From Cyanidioschyzon merolae (Eukaryota), in assembly GCA_000091205.1 (NCBI GenBank), contig AP006500.2: 64,000 nucleotides of DNA; one strand, given 5' to 3'. The notes beneath the pieces are model-generated. The model did no database searches. It was not told where the DNA came from and saw only the letters and a list, made by a program, of their open reading frames with translations. This document shows, piece after piece, positions 1 through 60,300 of this stretch (position 1 is the stretch's first letter; each line of letters starts with the position of its first letter). The position numbers and the translations under genes were made by a program.

Positions 1-72
1 AACGAAAATGAGTATACAATGTGTATCCTGAGCCTACGACAGGTGTCTGATGCGATGTTAGATTCGCCATCG

Positions 73-100
73 CAGCAGCAGCTGCTGCTGCTGCTGCTGC
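73..100. repeat. Palindromic trinucleotide microsatellite (CAG)3(CTG)6
   Basis: gcagcagcagctgctgctgctgctgctgc. Confidence 0.9.
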
Positions 101-672
101 ACAAGGTAGACACCGCACCGCTCTGTAGCACCTCTGTATGGGTTTCAGCTCAAGATGAAAGCTCGACGACTCTGCAGGCACCGCGCAACTGCAGGATATC
201 GCTGTACGCTGGCGGTGCTATCGCCCCGGTGATCGCCACCGAGGCGCAGCAGCGGCTACCACCCTTGTTGGGTTATGATCGTCCTACCTAACCAGGACAC
301 TGCGAGTGTGTGATGGGTATCAGCGCCCCTTGAAGCATCTTTCGTGCCGCAGCACAGCATGAAATTCCGCCAAACATCATCAACCAAGCTTGCCTTTTAG
401 GATCATGATTCGTTCGCAAGATTCTCCCTGTGTCGAGCCTAAAGCTCCACTTCGGACACCATATGGAGACAGACTGCCTTGAGCATGTCCATATGAGTGC
501 GTCTGCTTGAGGGCGTCTGTCGTCGCCTGCCCCAGATCGCATCGGCCTTGGCGAGCCATCTGATGAACAGCCAGTTGGATAAGGAAACGTGGCAGCAACA
601 GCAGCAGCGCTCGGGTGCTTTCAACGAAACCGAAAGCGCTTCCTTAACAAGCTGCGAGTCCATATCACCTGA

Positions 673-1659
673 ATGGGTGTAAACCGACTGCACATTGCAA
701 CGCCTTGTATTGAATCGAGAGAGTTTTCGCGGTTCATCGGGAGTCAGCATGTGTGGTTGAAGCTCGAAAACCTGCAACGGAGTGGATCGTTCAAGATCCG
801 CGGCATCGGATTGCTCTGCTCCGAGTCGCTTCGCCTCCAGCACTGCACTGAGATTATTTGTTCATCTGGTGGGAACGCTGGTCTCGCAGCAGCAGCAGCG
901 GCTTCAGCTTTAGGTCTTCCTGTTCAAGTCTATGTGCCGGAGACAACGCCGGCGTACATGCGAGCACGTCTTCGCTCGGAAGGTGCAACGGTGCACGTTC
1001 ACGGCAAAGTATGGGACGAGACCAACAGAAAGGCCCTCGAAGTAGTTGAGCGATCAAGTGGTGCACTTTATGTGCACCCTTTTGATCATCCGCTGATCTG
1101 GACGGGGCACAGCACACTCGTCGATGAACTCGACCAGCGTCCAGCCGCCATCGTCTTGAGCGTTGGTGGCGGTGGTCTCCTGCTTGGAGTCGTCCAAGGT
1201 CTGCAACGTCGCGGCTGGACGGATGTGCCGGTCGTAGCTGCTGAAACCGTGGGAGCGGCAAGCTTCGCGGCCACCTTCAACGCAAACGGTGTTTTGCAGC
1301 GCATTCCCACGATCGATACTGTCGCGAAAAGTCTCGGTGCATTGCAAGTATCCGAGGCCTGTGCGGAGCTCATCCGCAGCCGAGCGCACCCGCTCTATTC
1401 ATATGTGTGTACAGACCAGGAGGCGGTTGAGGCGATGCTTGCTTTCGCGACCCTGCACCGCATGCTCGTCGAGCCGGCCTGTGGCGCCGCACTGACGCTT
1501 GTGACCTCCCCGCGGGGACGCGCTTTTTTGCATGAGCATATCGGTCAAACAGGCAATATTGTTGTTGTTGTTTGTGGCGGGAATATGATCACGCCAAGTA
1601 TGCTCATGGAACTTGCAAAGGTCACAGGTGCATCTGGGGATTCCTGGTCAGCGATGTAG
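673..1659 (+). CDS. PLP-dependent serine/threonine dehydratase (L-serine dehydratase/threonine deaminase family)
   Basis: Single 328-aa ORF. N-terminal PLP-lysine motif ...LKLENLQRSGSFKIRG... The glycine-rich loop SVGGGGLL and overall collinearity with the Ser/Thr dehydratase fold. ATG at 673. Confidence 0.8.
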   Translation: MGVNRLHIATPCIESREFSRFIGSQHVWLKLENLQRSGSFKIRGIGLLCSESLRLQHCTEIICSSGGNAGLAAAAAASALGLPVQVYVPETTPAYMRARLRSEGATVHVHGKVWDETNRKALEVVERSSGALYVHPFDHPLIWTGHSTLVDELDQRPAAIVLSVGGGGLLLGVVQGLQRRGWTDVPVVAAETVGAASFAATFNANGVLQRIPTIDTVAKSLGALQVSEACAELIRSRAHPLYSYVCTDQEAVEAMLAFATLHRMLVEPACGAALTLVTSPRGRAFLHEHIGQTGNIVVVVCGGNMITPSMLMELAKVTGASGDSWSAM

Positions 1660-2750
1660 CGTGCTTGATGACGCTTGGATCGGAGGAACCTGGAGAACAT
1701 GTTGTGTGGTTGCAGATGCCGCAAGGCGCTTCTGCGAAACGACCGATTCGGTTGCACCATGATCAAGGCGAAACGTTCGTGCGCTAACCTTGCAAATGGA
1801 TGAGCAAGCAGGTGCGGCTCTCGGGTGTCTACGTCCGCTCTGCGATTCGAATGCAGACTCAGCACGCTGCATTCATGGTAGTATGGATAGAGCCTGAGCA
1901 GAGTGCTTTCGCGACGTCTGTTGGTCGTGGAGTTCCTGCAGAGGCAGCTCGCTGCTGGCCCCGAATAGCTTTGAACCATGCTTGAGGAATGCACACTGCG
2001 TTCCGAGATGCGTATGAGCGTCTGGCAAGCGACGCTGACGTGTGTCTCGGCTGCGGTGGAACCGTGTCGACACTGCGGTGCACGTCGCTGTTCGCACATG
2101 GGCAAAGAGAGGGTGGATAACCTCGGCCTAGCATGCGTTCTCAATGACACAATAGACTACCGTGAATGGACCTTGTTGTTGCCCCTGGTGTCGTTGTGAG
2201 TGCTGCAGCATTCGAATGATGCGCTGTTCGCGAAAACGCGATGCCATTCGCATCCGGTAATGTCGCAGTCGATATGCCGGTGAGTGCATTTGTTTCCGTT
2301 CGAAAGCGGACGCGGTGGCGCCAGCGCCTTAGTGCGACGCCCGGCGCTCTCCGCAGGCAAACCGCAAGCAGTGTTCCCGCTGTCGCATCTGACGCTTGAC
2401 TGCTGATCGACGCTGCCTAGTTTTCAGTTCAGTGCGCGGGAACTCTTGGTGCATGGATTTGAACGATGATGACATGCCTCGGAATTCGACACCGTATTGG
2501 ACGCTTCCGGAAACTACCACCGGTTCGGTCAACGAGCCTCGGAACGGCTACAGCCTCCTCGGGATCGCTGCACCTCGAGATGCTTCCAAACATACCTGAT
2601 AGAGGTTGCGCATATGTTCTGGGTGCGCGTTCAGATGCGCAGCCGAGCGAGTCTGCTGACTCATGAATGAAACGAAGTAGGTCATTCGTTTTCGATTTTC
2701 CCTGCTGAAGATGATACTCTCGTGATTGCTCAGATGCGTGGCATACGGCG

Positions 2751-2774
2751 GCAGCAGCAGCAGCAGCAGCAGCG
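2751..2774. repeat. (CAG)8 microsatellite
   Basis: ggcagcagcagcagcagcagcagcagcg. Confidence 0.9.
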
Positions 2775-2879
2775 TCGAGACCTCGTTCTCTAGACTTGTG
2801 TCCAATGAAAATGGAAAAATAAACTGTTTACTCGGTTCGTGTTTGTCGATTTTCTTTTGGAAATTTTATTCGGATGCTA

Positions 2880-3200
2880 AGCTTCGACACTGAAAGTGCT
2901 GTCATACGGGCTTGTGGATTCTCACAGAACGCCAGGATGCTCGGTCGTCGTTTCCGATTGGCTGCTTTGACCTGCTGCCGCTGGAATTCGATACGTCACT
3001 GGAATGCAGATGATTCGCGACAACCTCGAACTGTTCTTCGTCCAATAAACGATATCATTATTCGATGCAAGTGTACGAGCGTCCGCTCCTCGAATTTCCT
3101 TCCTTGTGGCATGCCCATATCCTGCGTTCTTCATGTGATCGATCTCTCTCTGATTCAACCCATATCATAGGCAGAATACTTCGCAATAATGGATTGATGC
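2880..3200. repeat. Degenerate partial copy of dispersed repeat family R4 (the sequence that forms the inverted-repeat arms at 33.9-37.8 kb)
   Basis: Read by eye, 2985-3100 matches the right-arm segment 36600-36720 (ctggaattcg...gattcgcgac...aaataa..atatc.ttattcgatgca). The antisense ORF 2922-3158 repeats the arm-ORF peptide ...ASNNDI.Y..K...R.SRI...PV..RIPA... Confidence 0.45.
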
Positions 3201-5419: not shown

Positions 5420-6130
5420 AACAGATTCAAACGCCATGAAGCATTCTGCGTCGAGAGCACAGAAACGAAATGCTACCTAGCAACGAGATCAGAATTTCTT
5501 TCCGTCTCTACGGTTGGCATTGAAAGGGGGAATGGTTTTCCGTATTTTCGAAAGTTTACATTTTTTAGGCAGAAGATCCAGCGAGCTGGACGGGTCTGCC
5601 AGGCCAGTGCTTCATGTGCCTCTGCTGGGACAGGTGCGGTGTCGAGACCTGAGCAACTCGTCCGCAACGCAGTTCTTTCCGGATTTCGGAGCTGGTAGAA
5701 TGTGTCTGGGCGCTGCCCTGATTGCGATAGTCTGCTAGAATATCGCTTCGCGCTGCCGCAGGAATCAGGTCCGGCTGCGCAGATTGCTGGCTCCCAGTAT
5801 GATCATGAATCCCAGTCCTGTGACTAGTGAACCACACCTCGATCCGACGCTCTCTGTTGTATGGTAAATATGCTCTGTCTTCATCTCACATCTGCAACGT
5901 CGCTGCAAGGACTATGGCAGGTGCAGCAAGGCGGGTATGCGGCGCACTATAGAACATACAACACGACCAGTAAATCCGAGATCAAGTCTAGGAAAATAAA
6001 CTTGAAGGTAAGGTGCAACATCACTGACGCTTTCTCGTTTACCATTATCCATCCCGCAAACTGGAATCCCGTATCAACGGAAACGTTTTGTCAAACAAAA
6101 CAATTGAGGTCGTCTTGCCGTCGCTGATTC
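5420..6130 (+). repeat. Partial copy of the Fanzor-unit 5' module (spacer plus R2), no adjacent intact Fanzor ORF
   Basis: 5420-5700 aligns with 26640-26930 (agaaacgag.atg...aatttctttcc..tctacggt.ggc...ttcgaaagtt.ac...gcttcatg). 5700-6130 aligns with R2 at 26930-27350 and with the reverse complement of 57040-57560 (tag.atatcgcttcgcgc.gccgcag...ggtatggtaaa...tagaaca...cccatcccgc...ggaaacg.t.tgtca). Confidence 0.5.
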
Positions 6131-10884: not shown

Positions 10885-12130
10885 CGAATGCCTTCCAAGC
10901 GCCAAACGCTGTATAGGCGGTGTTTAGGAGTGGCGAGCGGTGCGCCGCCCGCAACTGACTCTGCGTCTGCCCAACAACGTGCAGACGCCTCCTAGTCTTT
11001 CTAGACCGGCCACCTATGAATGGGTTCAACTTCTTCCGGTATTATTCGACCTTGAGAGGTTCCTTCACAGGGTAAGTTCGCGTCAGCTCTGCGGGTCTCT
11101 TCTGCATCACCGCATATCTCCTTCTATTGATAGCAACGTGAAGGCCTCGATGCACAAACTCCATGCATACATCACCGCTGGTTGAATTCATCAGTGCAAG
11201 GATTCCTCGACGGCGTGCCCTGTGTGCCACTACAGTCTCGGTATCGCCCGTCGGGCAAACATCTTTTCCTGACCATCTCGCCTCTTCTTGTTCCTCGTAT
11301 CACTTGCTCTTCTTCGCGCGAAGAATCGGCGAGGAGTTTTTCCGTTTTTTTTCCGGCAGCCGGCGATGCCAGCTCTCTAGGATCCCCAATTTGCGTATTG
11401 AAATTTTTCCCTTACATTTTTTCTTCTTCGAATGAGCGCACGTCGAACGCATCTGCTATGAACCACGAAAGAGCATTGAATGTCAAACACCAGGAAGTAA
11501 AACACATTCGAGGTGAAAGACGTGAACAGGTTGCATAGAGGGCGCTGGGCGCAACACCCGTGCATGAGTCGCACAACTGTACAATCGTGTATGTTTAGGA
11601 ACTATTATGTTCTACGTGCTAGGCACCGCCGCCGTCGCCAGTGTGCGCATGCCGCAACGCATACAATACCTCCGCGGGGTATGACGCTCTCGAGCAGCGC
11701 AATGCCTATCGTCGGTGCTCGCAGTGGACGCTTTCGACTGAAATGCGGCGCATCCTACGAGGGCCTGAATTCGTTTCCGCATAGGCGTATCGATCCGAGT
11801 CTACAGCGAGTCTAGCTTCTCTTCCAGGAGCGGTAGGTCGCTGGACAATGCACTCTCGACGCTGATCATGCGTGGCTCTGGTGAAAAGGTGTATGCGACC
11901 TGGGAGCCTGCCTCAGAGGGAACGGGCGATGTTCCCACTGAATTTTCTTCATCAGGATGCTGTGGACGCAGAGGAGCACGGTCTGCTTCGCAATGCTTCT
12001 GCTGGGCTCACCAGCACGAGTCACATCTTCGAGAGGGTGCTCAGTGTGCACCAGTGCCGCCCAGCTCAAACAATTGAGTTGCTCGCTATGATTTCACGGG
12101 TTCTGGGGATGTAGCCGGTTGCGGATAGCT
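10885..12130 (-). mobile_element. Internally deleted (non-autonomous) Fanzor-family element with its right end (RE), a C-terminal coding remnant, an N-terminal remnant, and degenerate spacer and R2
   Basis: 10885-11045 matches the conserved 3' non-coding region of copies A and B (gtgcagacgcctcc.agtcttt..gaccggccacc). 11045-11295, minus strand, encodes a remnant ...ETVVAHRARRRGILALMNSTSGDVCMEFVHRGLHVAINRRRYAV... homologous to the copy-A C-terminus, with RuvC-III degraded (RDFNAA to RGLHVA). 11295-11560 matches the N-terminal/NLS region of copy B 57950-58150. 11560-12100 is weaker homology to the spacer and R2. Confidence 0.55.
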
Positions 12131-19440: not shown

Positions 19441-20189
19441 TTGCGAACACCAGCGAACATGCTAAAGTTTCGGTTCAGTTCCACTATGATCAGCATAAGC
19501 CTGCGCGGGCTCTTTCCTGCGACTGCTTTCTTCCCGATTCCTTTATTTCCAGCTTAAAGTGCATCGGTCTCTCATGTGCTGCCAGCACCGTTGTCAGCAG
19601 TTCAAGGTTCTGGATCCTGGCGTTGGAGTCTCGATGACGCTATTGCCAGCTGTTGTCGACGCATTTCATGCACGGGCAAAAGTTGCGATCGATGCAGTAC
19701 GTACGATTTTTCATCTCCACCGTATAAAGCCTCGGTGCGCCGTTCGCAGCCGCTACACTTGACAATCGTCAGGTGTTGCCGTATTTCCACTGCACATCCT
19801 CTTGCTCAGCGGGCCGCATGTGGCGCGTGAACGCTTACTTCATCGCTTGGCACATGTCGTTGACGGGTCCAGAAGGCCCTCCTTGATACCTCCCTGGCTT
19901 TTCCCGCCATATGCCGCATGCGACGATCACGGGCTTCCTCTGGGCGTTCCGGTGGCGAGTACTTTGTTCGCAACACAGCCACGCGCACGCTGTACGATTC
20001 GGTAGAAGAGTTTCGGAAGGCGATTTCGTCCGTGCGAGAACGAGACCGAGGTAGAAAGTCGAGGTCAGACAACGTGACGAGATCATTCGATCCGGCTGCG
20101 CTTCGAGCTTTCAGCGGCGATACGCGACTTCCAATGGACATGATCCCTGCGATGACTGAATTCTGAGTGCGACACTCCTTTCCATGGAA

Positions 20190-20340
20190 GCAGAAGCGCC
20201 GAAAAGCCTCGGATGGCGTATCCTGTAAACGGTACCATGCTCATGTGGAATCCGGTTTGATCGATAGCGAAGAAAAACGAAGGATTCGTTTTTCGAACGG
20301 AATCGATTATTATATGACGTGATGATTTCAGCGGACATTC
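20190..20340. repeat. Small dispersed repeat R3 (second copy at 41960-42100)
   Basis: c.tcgga.ggcgta.cc…catgctc.tgt…tcga.agc…aacggaatcgattatt..gacgtga…tcag is shared between 20190-20340 and 41960-42100. Confidence 0.4.
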
Positions 20341-20559
20341 GATGTGAGTTTCTGGAGCAGTCGTCAAGCGACCACGTCGAGGTTTCTTTTCGTCAGTATA
20401 GGAGCGTGAATCGCTGCGCCTGCGACTTGCCCAGATCTTAGCGATGAAAAACTTGAAGCCTATTTGATTTGCGCATGTCACCTGTGAGGACGGAGACGCG
20501 TGGAGGATAACGCGTTCTGGTAAAATAATGAGGCAAGTTATTTTGCGAGTCCTTGTTCA

Positions 20560-21000
20560 CGAGCGATGCAGGTTATCTCGATTCGTACGACGGTACGAGT
20601 TCTAGCGGCAAGGCGTCGAAGAAGCCTCCCCGAAAATACGACCGAGAATGCTGAAACCACGCATGTATCCGTTCGTCTTTATTGATGTTTTTCGATTCCC
20701 GAAGTTGTCCATTTGAAACCAAGGATTCCTCGAACTCGTACCCTCTCTGTGCCACTACAGTCTCATTGTCGCTCCGTCAGACAAACACATTTTCTCGGCA
20801 ATCTCCTCCCCTCTTCTTCTTCTTTCCCGTCACTTGCTCTTCTTGGCTCGACGGTCGCCCAGAAGAATATTATTTTCGATTTTTCCTGCAGCCGGCCGCA
20901 CAGGGCCTCCAGGATCACTTACTTTTATGTCCATAATTTTCCCTTGGATTTTTTATCTCTTCAATTGAATACATTCTTTAGACCCTTAGGTGAGAACCTT
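20560..21000 (-). mobile_element. Second internally deleted Fanzor-family derivative; same deletion junction as 10885-12130, more degenerate
   Basis: 20740-20990 aligns base-for-base in pattern with 11220-11470 (…aaggattcctcga…ctgtgccactacagtctc…cctcttctt…cacttgctcttctt…ccggc.gccgg…ttttcccttggatttttt…), spanning the junction between the N-terminal and C-terminal regions. The 3' portion at 20560-20700 is a weak match to the RE. Confidence 0.5.
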
Positions 21001-21048
21001 TCCGGGACGAGAAGAACTTGCAGAAGAAAGCCGACATGGGCGTCGGAG

Positions 21049-21420
21049 TCATCGTATGGTGAACGCTTGCGCGATTCGCCCAGTGGAGCGATCATTATGT
21101 TTCACGATAGAAAACATTCGTTCGATGGCATTGTACCACAGAGTGTACGGAGGAATGAAAAGCAGGTCCATGTTGGATCGAACCAGCAAATGCTCGAACG
21201 TAGGGGTAATAGTGAAATACCACGCAGTCCAATAGAAGGACATCGTCAGACGTCAGGGAAAAGTCTTCTAGGACTCGATAAAGTGGGGTTGTTGTGTGAG
21301 CCTTCTCTACGAGAGAAACTTAGGCCGCCAAATAAATCCACTGCAGTTAGAATAGATGATGTCGTCCCTTTTTCGAGTTCGATTGTACGTACATCGTGCT
21401 CCCTGCTCCGCGAGTACACA
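21049..21420 (-). pseudogene. Degenerate Tc1/mariner(IS630)-like DDE transposase fragment
   Basis: Minus-strand ORF 21049-21243 encodes ...FEHLLVRSNMDLLFIPPYTLWYNAIERMFSIVKHN..., resembling the Tc1/mariner C-terminal signature (…H.S…FLE.NNIELL.WPP.SPDLNPIEN.W…K). Another frame upstream reads ...DDIIYSNCSGFIWRPK..., resembling the first D/E block (V.WSDES.F). No intact ORF remains. Confidence 0.35.
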
Positions 21421-24270
21421 TTTCCGCTCCGACCGTTTCGTCCGAAGGAATTCTCATCGACGGGAAAAACAAACCCACGTCCATCTGCTTCATACCGATC
21501 GCTGAGTTCCGGGAACGTTGTTGTACTTGCGATTTCGGTGGAAGATGGATGCACGTGAACTATGACTTTTTTCGCGGCGGTATCCCAGTGTTTTCATAAC
21601 CATACGAGCAAGCTGATACGAATCAGAGACGCACTTGGCGACTGCGATCGACGCATTGTTTTCCTACTAATGACAGCAATGAATCTTTGGGTATATCGGT
21701 TTTTGGCGCGGGGCGCGTACAACTTTTTCTTTCTTTCAGTGCTCGCCAGTCAGCAGAGTACTGTGGTATGACTGATCTGAAGGAGGAATGCAGTCATCCT
21801 TGCACTGTTCAGTAGAGGATATAGATTCAAAAGGCAATTCCCCGACGATCTCTGCTGTACAACGCATAGTGACGTCGATCGCTTGTTCCTCACTGTGGAA
21901 ACAGCATTCAATTCCATGCAGCGAAGATCCTGTACTATTGAGCTGAATGTCCAGAGGTACCGGATGTCGTGCGCCCCAAAAGAGTCAGCGATTCGGACGT
22001 CACCGCCGCCACTGATGACGGCTCATGCCCTCCGGCACAGGCGCAGATCTCGCAGATCTCGGCAGGGACCCCTGCCTGGACGCCCGTGAGAGTGGATCAC
22101 TTGTACCGAGGCGCGCGGTGATAAATTTCCATCATCATCGCTGAGCATGTGCCGGATGAAGATTCATCACGGACGAGTGACTGATACTGCACATCGATCC
22201 TGCGCGAGTATAGTCAGACGATTCTGTACAGAAAGCAGTATATAAATGCTTGCGCGACGCCGCACCGAATGATGCTCGAGTACCTATGTCCACTTCGTAC
22301 ACTTAAATCCGTGTTTTCGGTTGGCGTTCAGGCACAGGCGCGCCGTCTTTCGACGCGCGATCCGTGTCGGGCGGTGGTACTCCAACGTCGCCGAGTCCGG
22401 GAACAGAGGCGGCGCGAATCGAATCGTGCGTTTCGCTATCCCTGTCGCCGAACTAGTACGTATCGCGATCGCAGCCGGACGCATTTTTGTAGATTGTGCC
22501 GTCTACTAGTGGGGCAAGACGCTTCCTTGAACACACCTGCGGCACTGCTACGTTCCAGAAGCTGAACTGATCCTGCTGCTCGGCTAGGATGCAAGCTCGA
22601 GACGGTACCTTCTGGTGCACGCCTATCGTTCCATGCAAAAGATCGGTCAGCATGCAGCGTCCTGGATCAGCGACCTCGGCGGTGGCGGTACAGTTTTCCG
22701 CATGGAGCTAATGTTCAGCACCCGTTCCAGACCAGTCATCCTCTCAATAGCACCTTTCCGTCTCAACCGTTCCTAATGTGAACTCGCTGGCGTTCCAGCA
22801 CTATGCTACAACCGATCATAGCGCTATGCAGCGCCGGGCTGGAGCAATGGAAACGGCAGACGATGAGCGCCTGACTCGCAATCGACTAGTATCCGATAGT
22901 GGTATTGCCCCGCTTATTGGTGTCGCTGCAGTTCTCCGTCGGTGCGTGCGGGCAGGTGGCATCGTCAGAGCATCGTTGAGCCTTGATCGGACCACCCTAT
23001 TCGGATGGTGACACAGGTTTCCGTCTGGAACCAAACAGCATCGCACGCCAAAATCTTAGGTCTGCAGTCCTGTCCAGGCGCTGAAGTACAGTTATCTGAA
23101 TAAGCCAGTCAGTCGGCGCTCATCTTGCGTGGTCGTCTTCCTAAGCGAGTTGGGTTGCGCGATGAGCAGGACTCTGGGCAAACGAACGCTAAACTGGAGT
23201 CCCGGCATTTGTATACATCTGGCTGGCAGCTGCTGAACAACAAATCATCACTAGCTCAGATGATCTATCGTCCACTGTTGGAAAGACTCGTTTATCCAAT
23301 ATCTCGGATATTCGTGCTTCTGCATAGGCGCACAAGTCGCTAGACTCATCGAAGCATCGCTGTGAGAAAAACGTGCTGTGGCCCGCTTCGTTGTCGTGAA
23401 CACAGGTGATCCGCATCCATAGAGGTGCGCACTTCCCGTAAATGCAGACCGCTCGTGAAGCCATTACGGATTCTGTGTCTTGGTCCAGGAGAGGGGAACG
23501 CTTCGCTCTCACGCTCAACATTAGTCAACAGGCTCAGTACAATGCCGTACTAGGCGTCGCTCGCGCGGTTTTCGACTCTCCCGACTGCCAGCCAGAGCGG
23601 CATGACGCCTCGTGTCGTCAGTGGTCATCGATAGCCTACTGCAATGCAACCGTAGCCCTCAAGTCTCGCCTTTCCAAGACACGGAATCCGGTGGTATGCC
23701 CCTTTCCTGCCGCACTCCGCTGGTCGCTCCTGCCTTGCATGTGAGACTGAAACGACGCAAAGATCCACAAAACCCAGACGCCGCAGCCACAAATAACAAC
23801 ATCCCACCTCGTGAAACGATTTCCAGTAGTCCACCCGTTCCAGCACTGAGAAAGGCAGAACATATCCATATTACCTCATGGAGGCCTCCATTTGCGGTTT
23901 GTGCTCTCTAGTACGCTTCGTTGGCATATTCGCTCCTTCTGGGTCCGTTGGTGTGTGCGGAGGTCCCTCTATCCACCTGTCAAGGAGCGTTGATCGTATG
24001 CAAGCGCTTCTCATGGGGCTTTAGCGGTACTCGGGGCAACTCGAATACTCAGCGTGTGCAGGGCGCTGGTCGACGCAGCAACTGCTCCCGTGCCTCACCC
24101 AGACATAGCCATACACGTATGACCAGCTTTAGTCTAGTGCGCTGCAACAGACTTCCGACATTTCGCCCCCAAGCAGCAAGTGGGGCCTTGAGGAGCCCTG
24201 TAAGCGTGTGGTCGCAGCTTCAGTACAGCAGAGGACCATCTCGACTTGCTCTATTTTAGCCACGGGTTCC

Positions 24271-24600
24271 CTACGAGTGCTGCGCAGAGTCAGCGGATCT
24301 GACGGGAACGCCAGGAAACTCTCGCTTGAGATGTTTCCATTCGGGCCGATCCGTGCTTTTCGACTCCGCCATATCGTGCGCAACGAGCAGATAGATGCCG
24401 TACGGAACCAAGACTCCAAAGAGCAACGCGGTACGAATGTTCCGCGGGGTGAAACGGAACCGCTCCTCTAGAGTCTCCCGTCCAGCAACCCAGGCTTCCA
24501 CGTAAGGATTCTTCTTCACTTGCATAGCACCCATTCTTGGCCGATGTCTGCTTGAAAACGCGACTCTGAGCTTATCAAGAGCAAGAATAACCTCGGACAA
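24271..24600 (-). CDS. Small single-TM protein resembling NADH dehydrogenase [ubiquinone] 1 beta subcomplex subunit 4 (NDUFB4/B15)
   Basis: ...MGAMQVKKNPYVEAWVAGRETLEERFRFTPRNIRTALLFGVLVPYGIYLLVAHDM... resembles NDUFB4 (NPAL.RWAYART...F.PTPKNSLMGALCGFGPL.FIYYIIK). The likely start is an internal ATG (MGAMQ), not the alternative-start codon used by the ORF track. Confidence 0.4.
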   Translation of the reverse strand: MSEVILALDKLRVAFSSRHRPRMGAMQVKKNPYVEAWVAGRETLEERFRFTPRNIRTALLFGVLVPYGIYLLVAHDMAESKSTDRPEWKHLKREFPGVPVRSADSAQHS

Positions 24601-24614
24601 ATCGGGTACACGAA

Positions 24615-27350
24615 CGTCTTACAAGATAAACGCTGCTGCGGCCAGAAGTGTACAGTAGTGGCGAGAAACGCGCCCTAGACAAGACCTCTCCAAGTGACGT
24701 GCAGACGCCTCCCAGACTTTTTGGACCGGCCACCAACTACTGATTCCATTTTTTTCTCATATTAGTCCACTTTGAGAGGTTCTCCCACAAAATTCTCTCG
24801 TGTTCAGCTCTGGAGGTCTCGTCTCCAACACCGCACATCTCCTTATATTGACAGCGGCATTAAAGTCTCTGTTCACGAATTCCATACGTTTCTTGCCATC
24901 ATTGGTTGTACTTACTAATGCAAGTATTCCTCGAACTTTCGCTCCCCTTTCCATTCGCTCTACCGTCAGCGCCCCGTACGTTTTCATATCCTCAGGGATC
25001 CGCTGGCACTTTTCCATCTCCACTCTCTGAAGTGTATATCCCAACTCATGGTGTTTATAGAATGTTCGAAACTTATCTTTTGGTATCGTAACGAAACGTC
25101 GTGCCCACTCCTTGTACGTTCTTGTCGTTGGGGCTGGGGTACACCCTTTTTGGGTCACCCAGCGCCCTGCTCCGTACGCTACTACCAGCCTGTGACTCTT
25201 GTCGTCCTCCAAGGCGCTCAACTCATTAAAGAACTTGGCGAATGCACGCTGCTTCCCACTGTATAGATTCATACGCAGACGAGCCCAGCGGGGCTTTGAA
25301 TATTCTTTCCACATCTCCTCGTCATGAGCAGCCTGGGTTTCCATGAATTCCCGAAAGGCTCGAAAAACCGCCCCGCGGTTTGTCACTTTGCTGAACTCCT
25401 CACGGATATCGAACTCCGGGCTGATTTCTTTCAATGGGCCATGAAGGACGCTGGAGTTGATAGTCACAAAATGTGACTTGACGTTGCATAACGGAACGAC
25501 ATTGAAGCGCTTCCCCATTAGGGCAGCCTTCCGTCTCTCCCACTCCTCATTTTCTTCCTCATCCCGCATCATCTCCGCCTTGCGTTTGAGTTCTCGGTCC
25601 AAAAACACGAAATACGGCAGGATGAGGCGAAAGTATCTTTCCTTATATTTTTTCAACTCTGATATCTTTTCTGCTGGATTAGCCAGCCCAAGTACAAGAC
25701 GATCCTCTTGAAAAAGCGCACGGATTACAGAAGCTTCACTCGTATTCTCGTTTGACACTTTCTTGTCGACAAATTCGATCTCATCTTCATGCTGGCCATT
25801 GTTTTTGATACCATTGATAATCGCCCATATTGCTTTGCGAGAGAAGACCGGGTACAGCGCAAACACGGCGCGTATCATGAAACGTTCGAGGTTCATCGTC
25901 GAATGGTTCTTCAGGTTCGTGATGTACTTCATCGCCCCGTATGTGCAAATACGCGAGTCACCCTTGTATCGAGTACCCTCGAGGCTGTAAAACGGACGTT
26001 TTTCGTGAAGAGCGTGAACCCGCTCATTTTCCCTGCGCGTTTCCCCTGTGCCAAACATCAGCTGGCGAGTAGAGGTCTTGTCGAAAAACTCGTCTGGAAT
26101 CTCGACTGTTTCCATGTGCGTCACGTTGCGATACATCTCCCTCGCCAAATGCATCAGTCCTGACGACGCCTTAACAATGCTCTTGGAGCACGAGTCGACA
26201 CGGTTGCGGATGGCGTCTCGCAACTTTTCCTTGTACGAATCCTTCACACGTTTAAGAAGACAGGCTTTCGCCACCATCTCGTCGTACTGTTGCCTTTCGT
26301 ACAGCTTGTTCGTCTTCTCTTGTACCTCTGGACTCTGTACTGATTGTCGTCTTTTTCTGGCAGCTGGCGACACTGCGCCTCCAGGATCCTCTACTTCCTT
26401 TTCTATACGTTTCCTTTTTGTATTTGTTTTTTTTTTCTTGAAAAAGAGCGCATTTTTGAACGCTTCTTCTACAAACCAGCAAAAATAACTTGACCCCAGT
26501 CTGTTGAGGGTTAAAACGCAATCGAACTGAAAACGATGCTTTGCTACGACTACAACGCAAACACATCTTTTTCGGTGGAGCAAAACTCTATATATCAGGA
26601 TCGCGTTTCCCTTCCACAGCGACATTTACGTCGTGCCTCGTGAGTGCCAGTTCTCGAGGTGCGCGTATCGACCGCGCCATGGATAAAAGAATAGAAACGA
26701 GTCATGAAGTAGCAGCTCGATAACAATTTCTTTCCCCTCTACGGTAGGCGTTAGATGGGGAAAGTTTCTAAGCTTTCGAAAGTTCACCTTAGAGGCGGAA
26801 AAGCGCGCGAGCGGGACGAATTTCCCAGTCTCATGCTTCATGCTCCCTCCAGTGCCCAGCGCTGTAGCGAGATATAAGCAGCTTGTCCGAAACGCAGTTT
26901 ATTCTTGGACTCTGAACGGGTAGCCTGCGTCTGGTCGTCGCGCTGGTCCCAGTGGACTCCTAGCGTATCGCTTCGCGCAGCCGCAGCCGGTAGGTCTGTC
27001 CGCGCCGTTTCCAGGTTCCCAGAATGATAACGAATCCCGACCCCGTATCAGATGAACCCTGCCTCGATCCGGCACCCTCTGTGGTATGGTAAAGCCTTTC
27101 TGTCTCCGTGCTGCATCCGTTCCAGCGGTAGAAGCGCCACGGCGAGTGCTCAAAGCAGGTAATCGGCGCATGATAGAACATTCGAAACGACCGGTGCACC
27201 CGAAAGAATACACCAGTAATGGAACTTGGAGGTAGTTGCCTTATGATGGACAATTACATGAATCCTAATACCCGTCCCGCAATCTGGTATCCCTTATCAA
27301 TGAAGACGTTTCTTCATCGAAAAAAGATCAGCGGTACTGCTTCGAGCAGC
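24615..27350 (-). mobile_element. Fanzor/TnpB-like element, copy A: RE, 622-aa ORF, ~380-bp conserved spacer and ~0.45-kb 5' module R2
   Basis: Conserved along its whole length with 57040-60300 in inverted orientation. The 3' non-coding block 24615-24757 matches 60095-60300 and 10885-11045. The spacer 26550-26930 and R2 26930-27350 match the reverse complement of 57040-57940. Confidence 0.6.
24757..26625 (-). CDS. Fanzor/TnpB-like (OrfB_IS605-type RuvC) protein, intact 622-aa ORF, copy A
   Basis: C-terminal RuvC-III signature ...KKRMEFVNRDFNAAVNIRRCAV... (RDxNAAxNI, about 24847-24885). N-terminal lysine-rich NLS-like tract FFKKKKTNTKRKRIEKE. Collinear with the frameshifted paralog at 57950-60095. 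Relative to that paralog it lacks, in frame, the ~130-aa segment carrying the RuvC-I-like strand. The true start is uncertain because the ORF extends ~75 nt past the conserved 5' boundary of the element. Confidence 0.7.
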   Translation of the reverse strand: MSLWKGNAILIYRVLLHRKRCVCVVVVAKHRFQFDCVLTLNRLGSSYFCWFVEEAFKNALFFKKKKTNTKRKRIEKEVEDPGGAVSPAARKRRQSVQSPEVQEKTNKLYERQQYDEMVAKACLLKRVKDSYKEKLRDAIRNRVDSCSKSIVKASSGLMHLAREMYRNVTHMETVEIPDEFFDKTSTRQLMFGTGETRRENERVHALHEKRPFYSLEGTRYKGDSRICTYGAMKYITNLKNHSTMNLERFMIRAVFALYPVFSRKAIWAIINGIKNNGQHEDEIEFVDKKVSNENTSEASVIRALFQEDRLVLGLANPAEKISELKKYKERYFRLILPYFVFLDRELKRKAEMMRDEEENEEWERRKAALMGKRFNVVPLCNVKSHFVTINSSVLHGPLKEISPEFDIREEFSKVTNRGAVFRAFREFMETQAAHDEEMWKEYSKPRWARLRMNLYSGKQRAFAKFFNELSALEDDKSHRLVVAYGAGRWVTQKGCTPAPTTRTYKEWARRFVTIPKDKFRTFYKHHELGYTLQRVEMEKCQRIPEDMKTYGALTVERMERGAKVRGILALVSTTNDGKKRMEFVNRDFNAAVNIRRCAVLETRPPELNTREFCGRTSQSGLI

Positions 27351-29348
27351 AGTGCACGGCGGCGGCGCCGCCGAATGCCTGCGATGCACTCGGATATCTT
27401 GCTCAGGACGATAGCCTGGCCTCAAGACAGAACAGGAAAACAGTGCACTAGACAGTGCTGTTTTGTTTTGTGCTGTGTTTTGGACGAGCCCCTCAGGGAA
27501 CAGCGAGGGAGTTGCCCGCACGCCATGGGTAGTCCGCAGCTGGGGCACGCCTGCGCACCACACCAGGGCCTTCATAAGGGAACTCGGCAGCGAACCACGG
27601 AAAAGAGGCACATTGCTCCTGCCCAATTAGGACAGTTTGACACTGAGAGCGAGGTCGCTTTCTCGGGATATGGTAATGCTGCAGTGGTCAACCGTGGAAC
27701 CCACCCGCGAAGTTTTTCAGCGCGTACCAGCTTCGTCTGGTTTACTGAGCCCTGTGCTTTGACCAAAGTGCACGGCAAACACCCGTGCATAGGCATCCAG
27801 GAGAGTTCCTTCAGCGCTCCTGTTCTCTATCCGATCCATGGAGCTTCACGGATTCTTGTTCAGAGGCATTCCCCGCATCCGGTAAAGCGTGCGCTCCCGC
27901 GCTCGCGCTCTCGCTCCTGGAAAGCCTCGCTGTTCGAGCGTTTCTTCGGCCGGAAACGGTCATCGCGCCAAACTTGGCCCCACTTGATCAAAGAACAAGC
28001 ACCAACGGGGACAGTACCAGCTTCAGGTGCCTCATTCGCACAGAATGGAGCGGACACCACAGTTATTCCGCGAGCACGCGCTCGACATTCCCGTCACGAA
28101 CCGACAAGGGTAGCGTCGCCGACTCCCAGTAGTCGTGACATCACAGATGTTGACCGAAGCAACGCGGAAACTTGCATCGCGATACGCCATGTACACAAGG
28201 TTTTTCCCGACTCACATGCACCAGGAGGACAATTTTACGCCCTTTGTGATATTTTGCTCGATATCGAGGACGGCTCGCTAGTGGCTTTGGTTGGCCCCAG
28301 CGGTAGCGGCAAGTCGACACTGCTTCGTTGTATTGCGGGGCTTGAGAATCCGACCTCGGGGCGTATCTTCCTCCATGGGCGAGATACCGAGGAGATGAGT
28401 GTTCAGGAACGACGGATTGGCTTTGTATTCCAGCATTATGCATTGTGGAAGCACATGACCGTGTGGAAGAACATTGCATTTGGATTGGAGATTCGCAAGA
28501 CGCCTCGCTCAGAAATAGAACGGCGCGTCTTGGAGCTTCTGAAGCTCATGGGTCTTGAGGGACTCGGTGACCGCTACCCACATCAACTGAGCGGCGGACA
28601 GCGCCAACGGGTTGCGCTGGCTCGAGCCCTAGCTCCCGAACCGCGCGTCCTCCTCCTCGATGAGCCGTTTGGTGCGTTGGATACGCGAGTGCGGCGGAGT
28701 CTGCGTGCATGGCTTCGGCGCTTGCACGATGAGGTCGGCACAACGACGATCTTCGTGACGCATGATCAACAGGAGGCTTTAGAGATAGCCAGCTCCGTGG
28801 TGGTCATGAACAAGGGCCAGATCGAGCAGGTCGGCACACCGCTTGAGATCTATGAGCATCCAGCGTCGCCGTTTGTCATGAGCTTCATGGGCGATGTGAG
28901 CGTCGTGAGTCGTGATGCGCTCCCCGCAGAGCAGGCAAACGGGCGCACCTTCACGAATGCTACTCGAGCGCGCTCCGTGGAGACATCCAAAAAAGACTCC
29001 ATTTGGTCGGACCCCGAGCGTCCGCCGACAATACCGCGCGAGTCTGAGACAACGACCAATGTCCGTAAGAGCGATAACGCCGCCCAGTACTTGATGCTGC
29101 GTCCTCATGACGTTCACTTGCATCGCAGCCCCGATAGCACCACGGCTCCGGCTCGTGTTGTCGACGTGTTTTTCTTAGGTTGGAGTGTGCGTGTTGATGT
29201 CGAGCTCCAAGACGGCCAAATTCTTCAATCCATCATGCTCACAACGCGCTACAAAGAGCTGGGCGATTTGTATCCCGGCGACCTCGTGCATGTTAAGTTC
29301 TTCGGGGAACGCTCCTTCGAGGTGGACGAGGCCGAGTATAACATCTGA
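27219..29348 (+). CDS. CysA-type sulfate/thiosulfate ABC transporter ATP-binding protein with long N-terminal extension
   Basis: C-terminal ~400 aa: Walker [11 protein letters not shown]-loop, signature [15 protein letters not shown], Walker [13 protein letters not shown]-loop FVTHDQQEA, CysA/ModC-like C-terminal regulatory domain (...[13 protein letters not shown]...). The first ~330 aa are low-complexity. The first ~40 aa are encoded inside repeat R2, so the N-terminus may be over-extended. Confidence 0.75.
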
Positions 29349-49560: not shown

Positions 49561-51169
49561 GTCTCTTGGAACGTCAAGTCATCCGGAGGGACTAGTTGAT
49601 CTGGTTTCGTGCTTGCTGGCTGTGCGGGCATATGCAGGAGGCCGCAATTGATGCATCAACCCCACAGCATGAGAAAAACACTCCTGGATGCAACAGCGGA
49701 AGTGACCATTCTTACTCGTAGGCAAGCGCGCAGAGATGTCGTTCAGGGATTTCGGATCGTCGACGCTGACTGCGAATCCCCGATGAAGCGATTGATATCC
49801 GCGTCCATCATTGCGCATCGCACTGTGAGGCGTCACCAATCACCACCTTTGCTTCTCTTCACGTATACTAGTCCGCCAGTTCGTGTGATGCTGTGTGGTG
49901 CCGACTGCCTACCCTGAGCGCCGACGAGGACGTACACGGTGCCGCAGCGGATGCTGCACGGAGGCAAAGCGGCTTCGCCATACCCGTGAGAACGTCGGCT
50001 CTAAATGTGGTTTATTTGACGCGTCGTCAGGTATCTCCCTCATGTCGTGCCCTGACAGTCACTGTATGCGGACCTGACTTTACATCAAGATGCGTTGCAG
50101 AAAAGAAGCTGTCAGGAGGAATCCTGAAAACCCCGAGTCTTCGCTTCCCTGTATTGGGAGGCATGCAATGCGGTCTTGCGACTCGGGGGCCATTGCGCTG
50201 CACTCAGCAGCCAGGAGATGCACGAAACGCCGGGCGCGCATGTTCATGCAGTTCGCGGCTCTTTTTCGCCTAGAAAGACGAATAAGAGTTTGGTGCCAGA
50301 TAGCGCGCATTTTGGTCCAACCAGTGGGCCTCCAATTGTCAGTTCTGCACCCAAAATAAGCGAACGCTCATGAGCATCTATAGTGACATCCACGAGGTGT
50401 GATTGCTCGAACAGCCAGCTTCGTTCCTGTGTCCGAACGCGAACACTGCAAAAGCGAGTCTCGCCGAGCATTGGGAGTTACGTCTCCCCTGCAGAAGCAG
50501 TATGATTCCCTGCGAGCATGTAATTTTTCGATGCAACACAAGGCCCGGACGTGCTAGACTTCACCGATTCGCTCTTTAGCGAGCCAGACGGTTCCCATGG
50601 GAACCTCTGACCACCCCAATGACTCCCGCCAAACGTTTCATGTCTCTACTCGGTGGTTCTTCTAATGGGATGCGAGGCCAACGTTGAAGATCCTGTTCTT
50701 TCGAAATCGGCATTTGCATTCTTTGCCTTGAACCGTTCGTTAGAGATGTCGAGAAAAGAGTCAGTCCCAGAAACCAACTGGTATATATCCACTCCAAAGC
50801 CATACTTGAGGAAAATCTGCCTCCACTAGACCCAAACGCTTTTTCGATACCTTGGGATGCACGCCATCATCCGGTTGAGCCGGGGGCGCGTGCTGGGCCT
50901 CTTGGCCCTTGTACGACGCGCTGCAGTCTGCTGCAATGACTTCCAACGGGGGTGTATAGGATTTACATCCGAGAGCTTCCGTGCTGGGTGCTCTGCCGAG
51001 CATCCCGACACGATTCGCATCGACCTGTTGACTGGGGTCTGCATTCGCGAAGCGAGTGCGAGGCTCATGCCCCACCATTCGACGCCCCAGGTGACCGCCT
51101 TGATGATGCACATCCTAATTGACCCGATGCAGACTCCCAGCGACATCCCTATGGGTCCGATAAGAACCT

Positions 51170-60000: not shown

Positions 60001-60300
60001 GAGGTCTACTTCCGTTGGTGAGTACAACCAATGCCAAGAAACATATGAAATTCGTGAACCGAGACTTCAATGCCGCCAACAGTATAAGCAGATAGGCGGT
60101 GCTGGAGAAGAGGCCCCCAGAGTTGACCAGAGCCAACTTTCTGGGGCAACCTCTGCAGATGGCGCTGTACGAGAAGAAGCTGAAGCCAGTAGTAAATGGC
60201 CGGTCCAAAAACCCTGGGAGAATTCTGCACGCTGGCGTATATACATCAACGCTATCGGCTTGATGTGTGTGCGTTCGTTTGCTCGTTTTGCTGGCGGGAT
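57040..60300 (+). mobile_element. Fanzor/TnpB-like element, copy B: R2, spacer, full-length but disrupted ORF and RE
   Basis: 57040-57560 is R2 in reverse complement relative to 26930-27350. 57560-57940 is the spacer, the reverse complement of 26550-26930. 57950-60095 is coding. 60095-60300 is the conserved 3' block (…ccagag.tga.c…aacctct…cagtag…tggccggtccaaaaa.cctgggag…tctgcac…). Confidence 0.6.
57950..60095 (+). pseudogene. Fanzor/TnpB-like gene, copy B; retains RuvC-I-like and RuvC-III motifs; disrupted by stop and frameshifts
   Basis: Frame pieces 58582-59436, 59437-59892 and 59823-60095. RuvC-I-like ...[19 protein letters not shown]... at 59333-59356. In-frame TGA at 59434-59436. Frameshift near 59870. 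RuvC-III ...KKHMKFVNRDFNAANSI.... The N-terminal NLS-like region 57950-58210 (…QEKKKKKRE…) is itself split across two frames. About 60% amino-acid identity to copy A over alignable parts, estimated by eye. Confidence 0.65.

Follow-up and report, generated by a model that had tools for sequence, protein, structure and literature searches.

The closest structurally characterised relatives of the elements described here are the Fanzor1 proteins SpuFz1 of Spizellomyces punctatus (8GKH/9CEU), PpFz1 of Parasitella parasitica (9CF0/9CF1) and GtFz1 of Guillardia theta (9CER), followed by the TnpB protein of ISDra2 (8H1J/8EXA) and Cas12f. In Fanzors the canonical RuvC-II glutamate is replaced by glycine or proline, and the site of the zinc finger is preceded, at a distance of six residues, by an alternative glutamate (PMC10711439, PMC10530073); mutating either the RuvC-I aspartate or this relocated glutamate abolished cleavage by ApmFNuc (PMC10530073). 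From Cyanidioschyzon merolae, Bao and Jurka (2013, Mob DNA 4:12, PMC3627910) described the transposon CMe-1A, and its consensus, the CMe-1 protein and the element TE-N2_CMe are available from Repbase and from Additional files 2 and 3 of that paper. They counted about 150 copies with approximately 80% identity, listed CMe-1A as non-autonomous and assigned CMe-1 to the Fanzor1 clade. The first 635 bp, at the 5' end of CMe-1A, correspond to the independent element TE-N2_CMe, of which there are about 70 copies (PMC3627910). SpuFz1, PpFz1 and GtFz1 are found in defined transposon contexts, whereas the class of CMe-1A was published as 'unknown' (PMC3627910).

The window analysed here, a stretch of 64,000 nucleotides of C. 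merolae contig AP006500.2, is gene-dense, largely intronless and 55% GC, and contains genes with organelle-type N-terminal extensions, which supports the view of the earlier note that it derives from a eukaryotic nuclear genome. Two elements in the window, at 24-27 kb (copy A) and 57-60 kb (copy B), can with high confidence be regarded as decayed copies of CMe-1A, the transposon that bears the Fanzor1 protein CMe-1. The 3169-bp CMe-1A consensus aligns with copy B over positions 1-3087 at 82.4% identity (blastn), and with copy A over positions 1-1950 and 2394-3159 at 81-86% identity (blastn of the window), and the CMe-1 protein matches the window copies at 74-78% identity. Overall, identities range from 72 to 86%. 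The earlier note took this to be an undescribed Fanzor family; because the published consensus and protein align over their full length with the window copies, it is not, and to judge from these alignments the family is not new but has been known since 2013. An exact-sequence look-up of the 622-aa open reading frame (ORF) of copy A returned no record, and no function could be read from the names of the clusters to which relatives sourced from NCBI belong. The window copies share with CMe-1A the length of about 3.2 kb, the absence of terminal inverted repeats (TIRs), the identity of around 80% to the consensus, a 5' module that also occurs on its own, and the protein motifs. With the consensus as reference, both members in the window are degenerate, copy A by a 447-bp deletion and point lesions, and copy B by frameshifts and stops. 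Junction alignments suggest that the element reaches beyond the published consensus by about 12 nt at its 5' end (GATC plus a T-run) and by 2 nt or more at its 3' end.

Copy A is internally deleted and lies on the minus strand at 24613-27319, where consensus positions 1-1950 correspond to 27319-25392 and positions 2394-3159 to 25392-24623, with a projected end at 24613 (blastn with the CMe-1A consensus). Beyond its ends, coverage by 72 related loci falls to zero. Its 5' module, equivalent to TE-N2_CMe and thus to the first ~635 bp of the consensus (consensus alignment and PMC3627910), occupies 26677-27319 on the minus strand, and the T-run and GATC at 27320-27331 probably belong to this module as well. 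The 622-aa minus-strand ORF at 24757-26625, which ends with ...MEFVNRDFNAAVNIRRC... and contains the RDFNAAVNI RuvC-III signature as the earlier note had it, is the relic of a Fanzor1 gene. The ancestral start codon of this gene, at 26406-26404, has changed from ATG to ATA, and because it is lost, the first ~73 codons of the ORF are to be read as 5' leader read-through. The lysine-rich, NLS-like N-terminus that was pointed out earlier can be recognised as a Lys/Arg-rich stretch, FFKKKKTNTKRKR...AARKRRQ (residues 62-94, window 26439-26344), in which the basic clusters KKKKTNTKRKR and ARKRRQ constitute a putative nuclear localisation signal.

The motif RDxNAAxNI could in principle occur by coincidence in an ORF of an unrelated family, and several database searches might be taken that way. 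A Pfam scan of the 622-aa ORF and 15 relatives, with a Pfam set without PF26935/DUF8286, gave nothing significant; for OrfB_IS605 and OrfB_Zn_ribbon (now Cas12f1-like_TNB) the best of the 15 relatives reached E=0.019, which misses the cut-off, and a PDB search with the single sequence gave no match. However, a family profile built from the relatives matches the Parasitella Fanzor1, PpFz1, in the PDB with E=1.8e-14, across three separate conserved blocks, ETDG/DPGR, DEFRTS and NRD. The fold comparison, which was carried out on the intact relative P0002 and not on the deletion-bearing ORF of the window, gives the same picture: the AF2 model of P0002 (pLDDT 81.5, pTM 0.78) retrieves in Foldseek seven top matches that are all Fanzor1 structures (SpuFz/PpFz/GtFz; E 1e-16 to 1e-13, TM at most 0.73), with Cas12 and TnpB structures ranking far below. 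Together with the placement of CMe-1 in the Fanzor1 clade by Bao and Jurka (PMC3627910), this makes a chance motif extremely improbable. The Fanzor/TnpB-superfamily call of the earlier note is therefore borne out by profile and fold, and a structure comparison of the kind that it proposed, made with P0002, puts Fanzor1 structures first. Its other proposal, a search with the Pfam models OrfB_IS605 and OrfB_Zn_ribbon, would, if taken as decisive, wrongly reject a true Fanzor, as the kinship is visible only by comparing a profile with the PDB and by comparing folds.

By sequence and model, then, the family is a Fanzor1 family of the TnpB superfamily with a predicted RuvC nuclease. P0002 shares its fold with SpuFz1, PpFz1 and GtFz1 at TM scores of 0.5-0.73, and the CMe-1 family has in common with these proteins the RuvC-I DPG, the relocated glutamate within DEFRTS and the RuvC-III NRD, even though sequence identity is only 12-15%. 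The catalytic D/E/D residues are invariant in 46 relatives, being D484 (within D484/P485/G486) and E656 in P0002 numbering and the RuvC-III aspartate. Two features set the CMe-1 family apart from the three characterised proteins: a variable linker of 25-aa tandem repeats before RuvC-I, and HHELGC...C in place of the CxxC...CxxC zinc finger. The earlier note found no CxxC pair ahead of RuvC-III, and indeed no C4 zinc finger (CxxC...CxxC) was detected between RuvC-II and RuvC-III; the best candidates in the family are THHELGC...C or HCxxxC...WC, and several members are without any Cys pair. Since Bao and Jurka still placed CMe-1 in Fanzor1, the zinc finger appears degenerate in the CMe-1 clade. 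With TnpB and Cas12f the family shares a single RuvC domain, the D..E..D triad and its location on a transposon. A further common feature would be the candidate structured RNA region, which starts within the 3' part of the gene and borders on the right end of the element. In contrast to these two, the family has a glycine at the position of the canonical RuvC-II glutamate, a eukaryotic host and a basic N-terminus that resembles an NLS; the fold matches of P0002 to TnpB and Cas12f are weak and partial (E 0.05-0.5), and the Pfam TnpB models are not significant.

At the active site, copy A shows clear losses. An in-frame 447-bp deletion, with its junction …EISPEFDIREEFSKVT… at 25381-25428 (minus strand, by comparison with relatives), removes 149 codons of the family consensus, among them those for the WED strand 'FTGxIETDG', for the linker repeat and for the aspartate of the RuvC-I 'DPG'. 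The segment RLVVAYGAGRW (25159-25191, minus strand) corresponds to the strand that holds the canonical RuvC-II glutamate in TnpB; there is no glutamate, the family residue being glycine (family consensus VVAYGAG), and the earlier note had rightly seen its absence as consistent with the rearranged active site of Fanzors (PMC10530073, PMC10711439). At the alternative glutamate, for which the family consensus is VDEFRTS, copy A reads KDKFRTF (25060-25080, minus strand), with lysine in place of glutamate. The RuvC-III motif FVNRDFNAAVNI at 24844-24879 (minus strand) retains its aspartate, as does that of copy B, and a late frameshift, private to the strain of the window, rewrites the C-terminus. 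The ORF might nevertheless be read, as the earlier note implies, as an active nuclease that represents a new family and whose active site is rearranged in an unusual way, since it is long and open, keeps RuvC-III and a basic N-terminus, and since relocated RuvC-II glutamates do occur in Fanzors (PMC10530073). I consider this very unlikely, as the ORF is without the RuvC-I aspartate and 148 adjacent codons that every intact relative has, the relocated glutamate is a lysine at a site where, as at RuvC-I, a single mutation abolished ApmFNuc cleavage (PMC10530073), and the family is already published as CMe-1A. Copy A is, as far as its residues allow prediction, a decayed, nuclease-dead Fanzor1 relic.

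Copy B, at 57149-60231 on the plus strand, is near full length (consensus 1-3087, without the last ~82 bp; blastn of the consensus). The earlier note had correctly seen a diverged paralog with RuvC-I and RuvC-III here, and its limits of 57950-60095 fall short of the true extent. It is a pseudogene, whose reading frame is shifted by six indels and interrupted by three stops. It keeps RuvC-I as GTDPGNTN (59335-59358), which includes the DPG deleted from the 622-aa ORF, as well as RuvC-III as FVNRDFNAANSI (60051-60086), and its alternative glutamate has been replaced by glycine in IDGFRTS (59851-59871). The relocated glutamate is accordingly absent from both window copies. Since neither copy retains all its catalytic residues or an intact coding sequence, there is no working system in the window, and the 622-aa ORF, which lacks its start codon, RuvC-I and the catalytic glutamate, does not form the system for which the earlier note had made this family its main candidate. 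The two copies are, on the evidence of these lesions, inert genomic fossils for which no nuclease function is possible. The decay is not confined to these two, almost all of 71 related loci being broken as well.

In bacteria, nuclease-dead TnpB derivatives act as RNA-guided regulators or repressors. They form a conceptual parallel to copy A, in which the reading frame is open and catalytic residues are lost, and copy A could by the same token encode a nuclease-dead Fanzor derivative that the host has exapted and retained, serving, for instance, as a regulator or as a DNA-binding protein guided by RNA. The deletion is exactly in frame and leaves 622 codons open, and the same derivative is open at the orthologous locus of a related strain (JGI metagenome 3300054705), with 97.3% nucleotide identity including the unique flank and with the same deletion junction in the orthologue (P0001/L073). 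Between the two strains, 16 synonymous and 27 non-synonymous changes give a dN/dS of 0.45 (p=0.014); the value was 0.52 when inflated by the frameshifted tail and 0.45 when redone. Because the ORF is open in two strains with a dN/dS of about 0.45, copy A may keep a residual non-nuclease role. However, the Nei-Gojobori statistic ignores transition bias and is based on 43 changes only, and the dN of 0.021 equals the non-coding divergence of the same locus (0.016-0.021). The ancestral start codon is lost, the codon of the catalytic glutamate has mutated independently, so that it now specifies K in one strain and M in the other, and the private frameshift has rewritten the C-terminus in the window strain. 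Furthermore, the deletion takes part of the WED/RuvC core, so that the fold is probably destabilised, and the 3' RNA region of copy A is unfolded (z=0.07) and the most diverged part between the strains (10%). Unlike the bacterial regulators, copy A has thus also lost structural core elements, its 3' RNA region has decayed, and there is no clear signal of selection in the two strains. I regard exaptation as decidedly unlikely, and the reading of copy A as a decayed relic is retained.

The earlier note counted at least four copies in the window, which is an overstatement: what is present is two copies, a single gutted remnant and some short scraps. The supposed copy at 10.9-12.1 kb is a gutted CMe-1A remnant at 10964-11481 (minus strand; blastn), made up of only a 3' piece (10964-11210, consensus 2852-3100) and a 5' coding piece (11338-11481, consensus 830-969); the RuvC-III motif of the remnant, FVHRGLHVAINRR, is degraded. 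At 20.56-21.0 kb there is only an 82-bp scrap (20873-20954, minus strand), a nucleotide match to consensus 885-968 in the low-complexity lysine-rich/leader region; a match at the protein level is absent, and its significance as a copy is doubtful. Two further pieces found by blastn had escaped notice, a solo TE-N2_CMe at 5456-6093 (minus strand; consensus 4-634, 77% identity) and a TE-N2_CMe scrap of about 100 bp at 49900-50001 (plus strand; consensus 153-252, 74% identity).

An intact CMe-1A consists of the ~635-bp 5' module, a Fanzor1 gene of about 734 codons and, overlapping the last part of this gene, a 3' end of about 150 nt that is predicted to be structured. On the analogy of Fanzor1/TnpB systems that have been characterised, this 3' end would be transcribed into a guide RNA, whose scaffold would bind the Fanzor1 protein and whose guide would be copied from the DNA just past the right end of the element. 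The ribonucleoprotein would enter the nucleus by means of the basic N-terminus, and matching DNA would be cut by the single RuvC site, formed by the Asp of DPG, the relocated Glu within VDEFRTS and the Asp of NRDxNAA. RNA guidance and cleavage by CMe-1, and any role of it in transposon maintenance, I infer from this analogy. The family consensus of the 3' 145 nt folds stably, at -56.8 kcal/mol (z=-2.79; none of 200 shuffled sequences reached this stability), and the alignment of 60 copies shows 3' ends with a long-range stem and a terminal hairpin, in two self-consistent versions. The consensus equivalent of the decayed 3' terminal region of copy A (24613-24760, minus strand) is therefore a candidate omega RNA scaffold with terminal hairpin. 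RNAalifold, applied to 32 3' ends, recovered hardly any consensus structure, and an explicit pair count on hand-drawn 3' helices gave complementarity, but no covariation above shuffles; since most copies decay neutrally, I judge this count to be uninformative. The complete window matched no family in Rfam, and in the literature searched I found no characterisation of the transposition mechanism or the guide RNA of CMe-1A.

The related loci show a modular organisation. CMe-1A ends are discrete and copy number is high, and the 5' module is found with and without the core and in both orientations. The core itself has sharp 5' and 3' boundaries of its own, hairpins at both ends, interchangeable 5' modules and many 5'-truncated copies. 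No TIRs or target site duplications were found at the element ends, no transposase for CMe-1A came to light, short of a systematic scan of the ORFs flanking the 71 loci, and there was no orthologous empty site for the unique DNA of the window among the loci retrieved. The T-run upstream of the 5' end was considered as a target or TAM; this was dropped since the run recurs next to inverted modules, and for that reason it is probably part of TE-N2_CMe. A retroposon origin of the 5'-truncated copies was rejected, as the 3' end carries no poly(A) and the T-run lies opposite to where it would be expected, and a Helitron-like reading of the 3' hairpin is unsupported, with no CTRR end and no consistent 5' TC. 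A combined proposal, which I hold to be improbable, is that copy A stays open in at least two strains because its product, derived from a Fanzor but nuclease-dead, was exapted and, separately, that CMe-1A moves by an undescribed mechanism.

The 2013 paper in which the Fanzors received their name already had the CMe-1A family among its founding examples, and as the copies in this window are dead, they have little discovery value. They do provide a case for calibration, in that a correct motif call (RDxNAAxNI) was still misjudged as novel and functional. The metagenomic copies, with their core boundaries, modular 5' ends and two-version 3' hairpin, could help to define the mobility and the guide RNA of CMe-1A.

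The earlier note had built its case on a 622-aa ORF on the minus strand at 24757-26625, ending in …MEFVNRDFNAAVNIRRC…; this ORF exists, and the observation is largely real. Comparison of the window with itself reveals two substantial related elements, copy A at ~24.6-27.3 kb (-) and copy B at 57.1-60.2 kb (+), with ~72% nucleotide identity. About 430 bp of coding sequence in copy B are missing from copy A, and the 622-aa ORF is therefore an internal-deletion derivative. The paper that named the Fanzors (Bao & Jurka 2013, PMC3627910) covers CMe-1A of Cyanidioschyzon merolae, a transposon of unknown class with ~150 copies that show ~80% identity to a 3169-bp consensus, without TIRs and with undetermined TSDs; its 5' 635 bp constitute an independent element, TE-N2_CMe, with ~70 copies (PMC3627910). 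From the additional files of that paper I took the consensus sequence and the CMe-1 protein (734 aa) and aligned both to the window. The ORF and CMe-1 share 74-78% amino-acid identity. Copy B (57149-60231, +) corresponds to consensus positions 1-3087 at 82.4% identity, and copy A (-) to positions 1-1950 (27319-25392) and 2394-3159 (25392-24623) at 81-86%. Apart from these there are a solo TE-N2_CMe (consensus 4-634, 5456-6093, 77%), a gutted remnant (consensus 2852-3100 and 830-969, at 10964-11210 and 11338-11481, 73-75%) and scraps (consensus 885-968 and 153-252, at 20873-20954 and 49900-50001, 74-77%), so that the proposed count of at least four copies was too high. Given these alignments, the claim that the family is undescribed was wrong; to judge from sequence, the window elements are fossils of an already described family.

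The Fanzor assignment itself is borne out. A Pfam scan and a single-sequence PDB search with the 622-aa ORF gave no match; taken by itself, the Pfam check proposed in the earlier note would have led to a wrong rejection of the call. A database search yielded 74 relatives, with full-length members of 600-750 aa, whose alignment shows three conserved blocks: xDPGxxNI; VVAYGxG, followed ~35 residues on by VDEFRTS; and FVNRDxNAAxNI. The family profile matches Fanzor1 of Parasitella parasitica (9cf0, E=1.8e-14) over exactly these blocks, and a deeper, 46-sequence alignment shows no exception to the Asp in DPG, the Glu in DEFRTS or the Asp in NRD. The proposed structure prediction and fold search succeeded with an intact relative, P0002, modelled with AlphaFold from the 46-sequence alignment (pLDDT 81.5, pTM 0.78): the top seven Foldseek matches in the PDB are all Fanzor1 (SpuFz 9ceu/8gkh, PpFz 9cf1/9cf0, GtFz 9cer; E 1e-16 to 1e-13, TM up to 0.73), whereas Cas12 and TnpB appear below them, only at E≥0.01. 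Published hallmarks of Fanzors are a DPG RuvC-I, replacement of the canonical RuvC-II Glu by Gly or Pro, and an alternative Glu located six residues N-terminal to the zinc finger (PMC10711439, PMC10530073). All three are found in the CMe-1A protein family, and its zinc finger is degenerate in the relatives' alignment; the earlier remarks that RLVVAYGAGRW lacks a Glu and that no CxxC is present were therefore correct. The CMe-1A family is rightly placed in Fanzor1. Many relatives (P0002, P0003 etc.) carry a precomputed PF26935 'DUF8286' domain, which appears to belong to a Fanzor1 clade.

Both window copies are decayed. Copy A has lost its start codon (ATG to ATA), and ~73 codons at the beginning of the '622-aa ORF' therefore read through the leader. 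It also carries an in-frame 27-bp deletion, an in-frame 447-bp deletion (149 codons) that takes out the RuvC-I DPG motif together with the linker and the FTGxIETDG strand, a change of the alternative Glu to Lys (KDKFRTF, 25060-25080), and a 1-bp insertion that rewrites the C-terminus. Copy B has three in-frame stops and six frameshifting indels, and lacks the last ~82 bp of the element; it keeps DPG and RuvC-III, and its alternative Glu has become Gly. A characterised Fanzor no longer cleaves once its RuvC-I Asp or its alternative Glu is mutated (PMC10530073), so, judged by these residues, neither copy can give an active nuclease, and the functionality claimed for them was mistaken. Nearly all of 71 related loci, drawn from a handful of JGI metagenomes, are similarly broken; only the P0002 locus, L001, combines a long open frame with the full set of motifs.

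Alternatively, copy A could have been exapted. An orthologous metagenome locus, L073, shares the deletion junction and has an open ORF; its identity to copy A is 97.3% across 2499 bp, of which 240 bp are unique flank. The two differ by 16 synonymous and 27 non-synonymous changes, giving a dN/dS of 0.45 (p=0.014). However, the dN of 0.021 matches the divergence of non-coding sequence there (0.016-0.021), the two strains have different catalytic codons (K vs M), the frameshift is private to the window strain, and divergence peaks in the 3' RNA region (10%); together these points make exaptation very improbable. The 144-bp terminal segment at 24613-24756 is 10.4% diverged from L073, against ~2% everywhere else, possibly because gene conversion patched in sequence of another copy or because the metagenome assembly is chimeric.

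The window is gene-dense, largely intronless and 55% GC, with genes of eukaryotic type (KRR1, adaptin, PHD finger, WD40) and N-terminal extensions on several enzymes, which agrees with C. merolae as the probable host. GC drops to 0.49-0.51 in the 2-kb bins 20001-22000, 24001-26000 and 58001-60000, which contain transposon sequence, versus 0.53-0.59 elsewhere; yet only an 82-bp CMe-1A scrap is detectable at 20-22 kb, where another decayed repeat may lie. A 709-aa ORF at 27219-29348 (+) has a CysA-like ABC ATPase and TOBE domain in its C-terminal half and looks like a nucleus-encoded, organelle-type sulfate/molybdate importer ATPase. It begins with a ~340-aa low-complexity extension, and since ~100 nt at its beginning are shared with the 5' end of copy A, the true start probably lies further downstream.

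The right boundary is sharp in 60 aligned 3' ends, which share a conserved ~150-nt region overlapping the end of the ORF, with a long-range stem (CAGUAGUGG…CCACUACUG), internal hairpins and a terminal hairpin in two versions, both pairing (GGCGUCGUUCGA-CUU-UCGAACGGCGUU and CAACGUUUUUC-UUUU-GAAAGGCGUUG). As DNA, both versions are perfect stems (GGCGTCGTTCGA-CTT-TCGAACGGCGTT vs CAACGTTTTTC-TTTT-GAAAGGCGTTG; ~60 loci, window 24613-24650), and the hairpin extends at least 2 nt beyond the published consensus end. The published consensus 3' end folds at -56.8 kcal/mol (z=-2.79; 0 of 200 shuffles equally stable), and that of copy A at z=0.07. Neither RNAalifold nor an explicit pair count detected covariation above shuffles, which is expected of neutrally decaying copies and thus neither supports nor refutes a structure; Rfam held no matching family. 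From its position, and by analogy, I infer that this region is an omega RNA. Were the element active, the flank at 24271-24600 would be the source of the guide sequence. A 109-aa ORF, on the minus strand like copy A, occupies this flank; it starts 13 bp past the element's right end and is ~98% conserved in the portion spanned by the orthologous contig.

The Fanzor 'core' (e.g. L001:9675-12396, window 26676-24613, L057:4926-5700) has its own sharp 5' boundary, between …ATCG and CGCUCGGUGAGCG, with a hairpin; at this boundary (…ATCG, then CGCTCGGTGAGCG) the hairpin sequence differs among subfamilies and pairing is kept. It adjoins four contexts, namely forward TE-N2, inverted TE-N2, a 775-bp module ('U2') absent from the window, and unique DNA, and the 5' modules seem exchangeable next to a constant 3' part made up of gene and RNA. 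Many copies are truncated at the 5' end with the 3' end intact, several of them head-to-head or in tandem (L042, L052/L055, L021/L022, L056/L058), a pattern that suggests insertion of copies beside or inside one another, or else copying that began at the 3' end and was aborted. The element copies showed neither TIRs nor TSDs, and no transposase came to light. The 25-aa acidic/lysine linker that directly precedes the RuvC-I DPG (KHEEKKEA..TQEVQDNDxVV) is encoded by a 75-bp tandem repeat with one to about five units: the consensus (~nt 1990-2060) has a single one, some element copies as many as 4-5 (L001:11146-11450; same region of L010, L014 and L017). In the P0002 model this stretch (residues 376-470) is disordered. 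All TE-N2_CMe/CMe-1A 5' ends follow a (T)GATC and a run of 6-9 T (window 27320-27331; e.g. L045, L032, L040). The string recurs, reverse-complemented, where an inverted TE-N2 module meets the Fanzor core, so the element probably starts ~12 nt before the published consensus does. The core boundary, the interchangeable upstream contexts, the 5' truncations, the variation in the linker repeat and the GATC with its T-run are additions to the 2013 description of CMe-1A.
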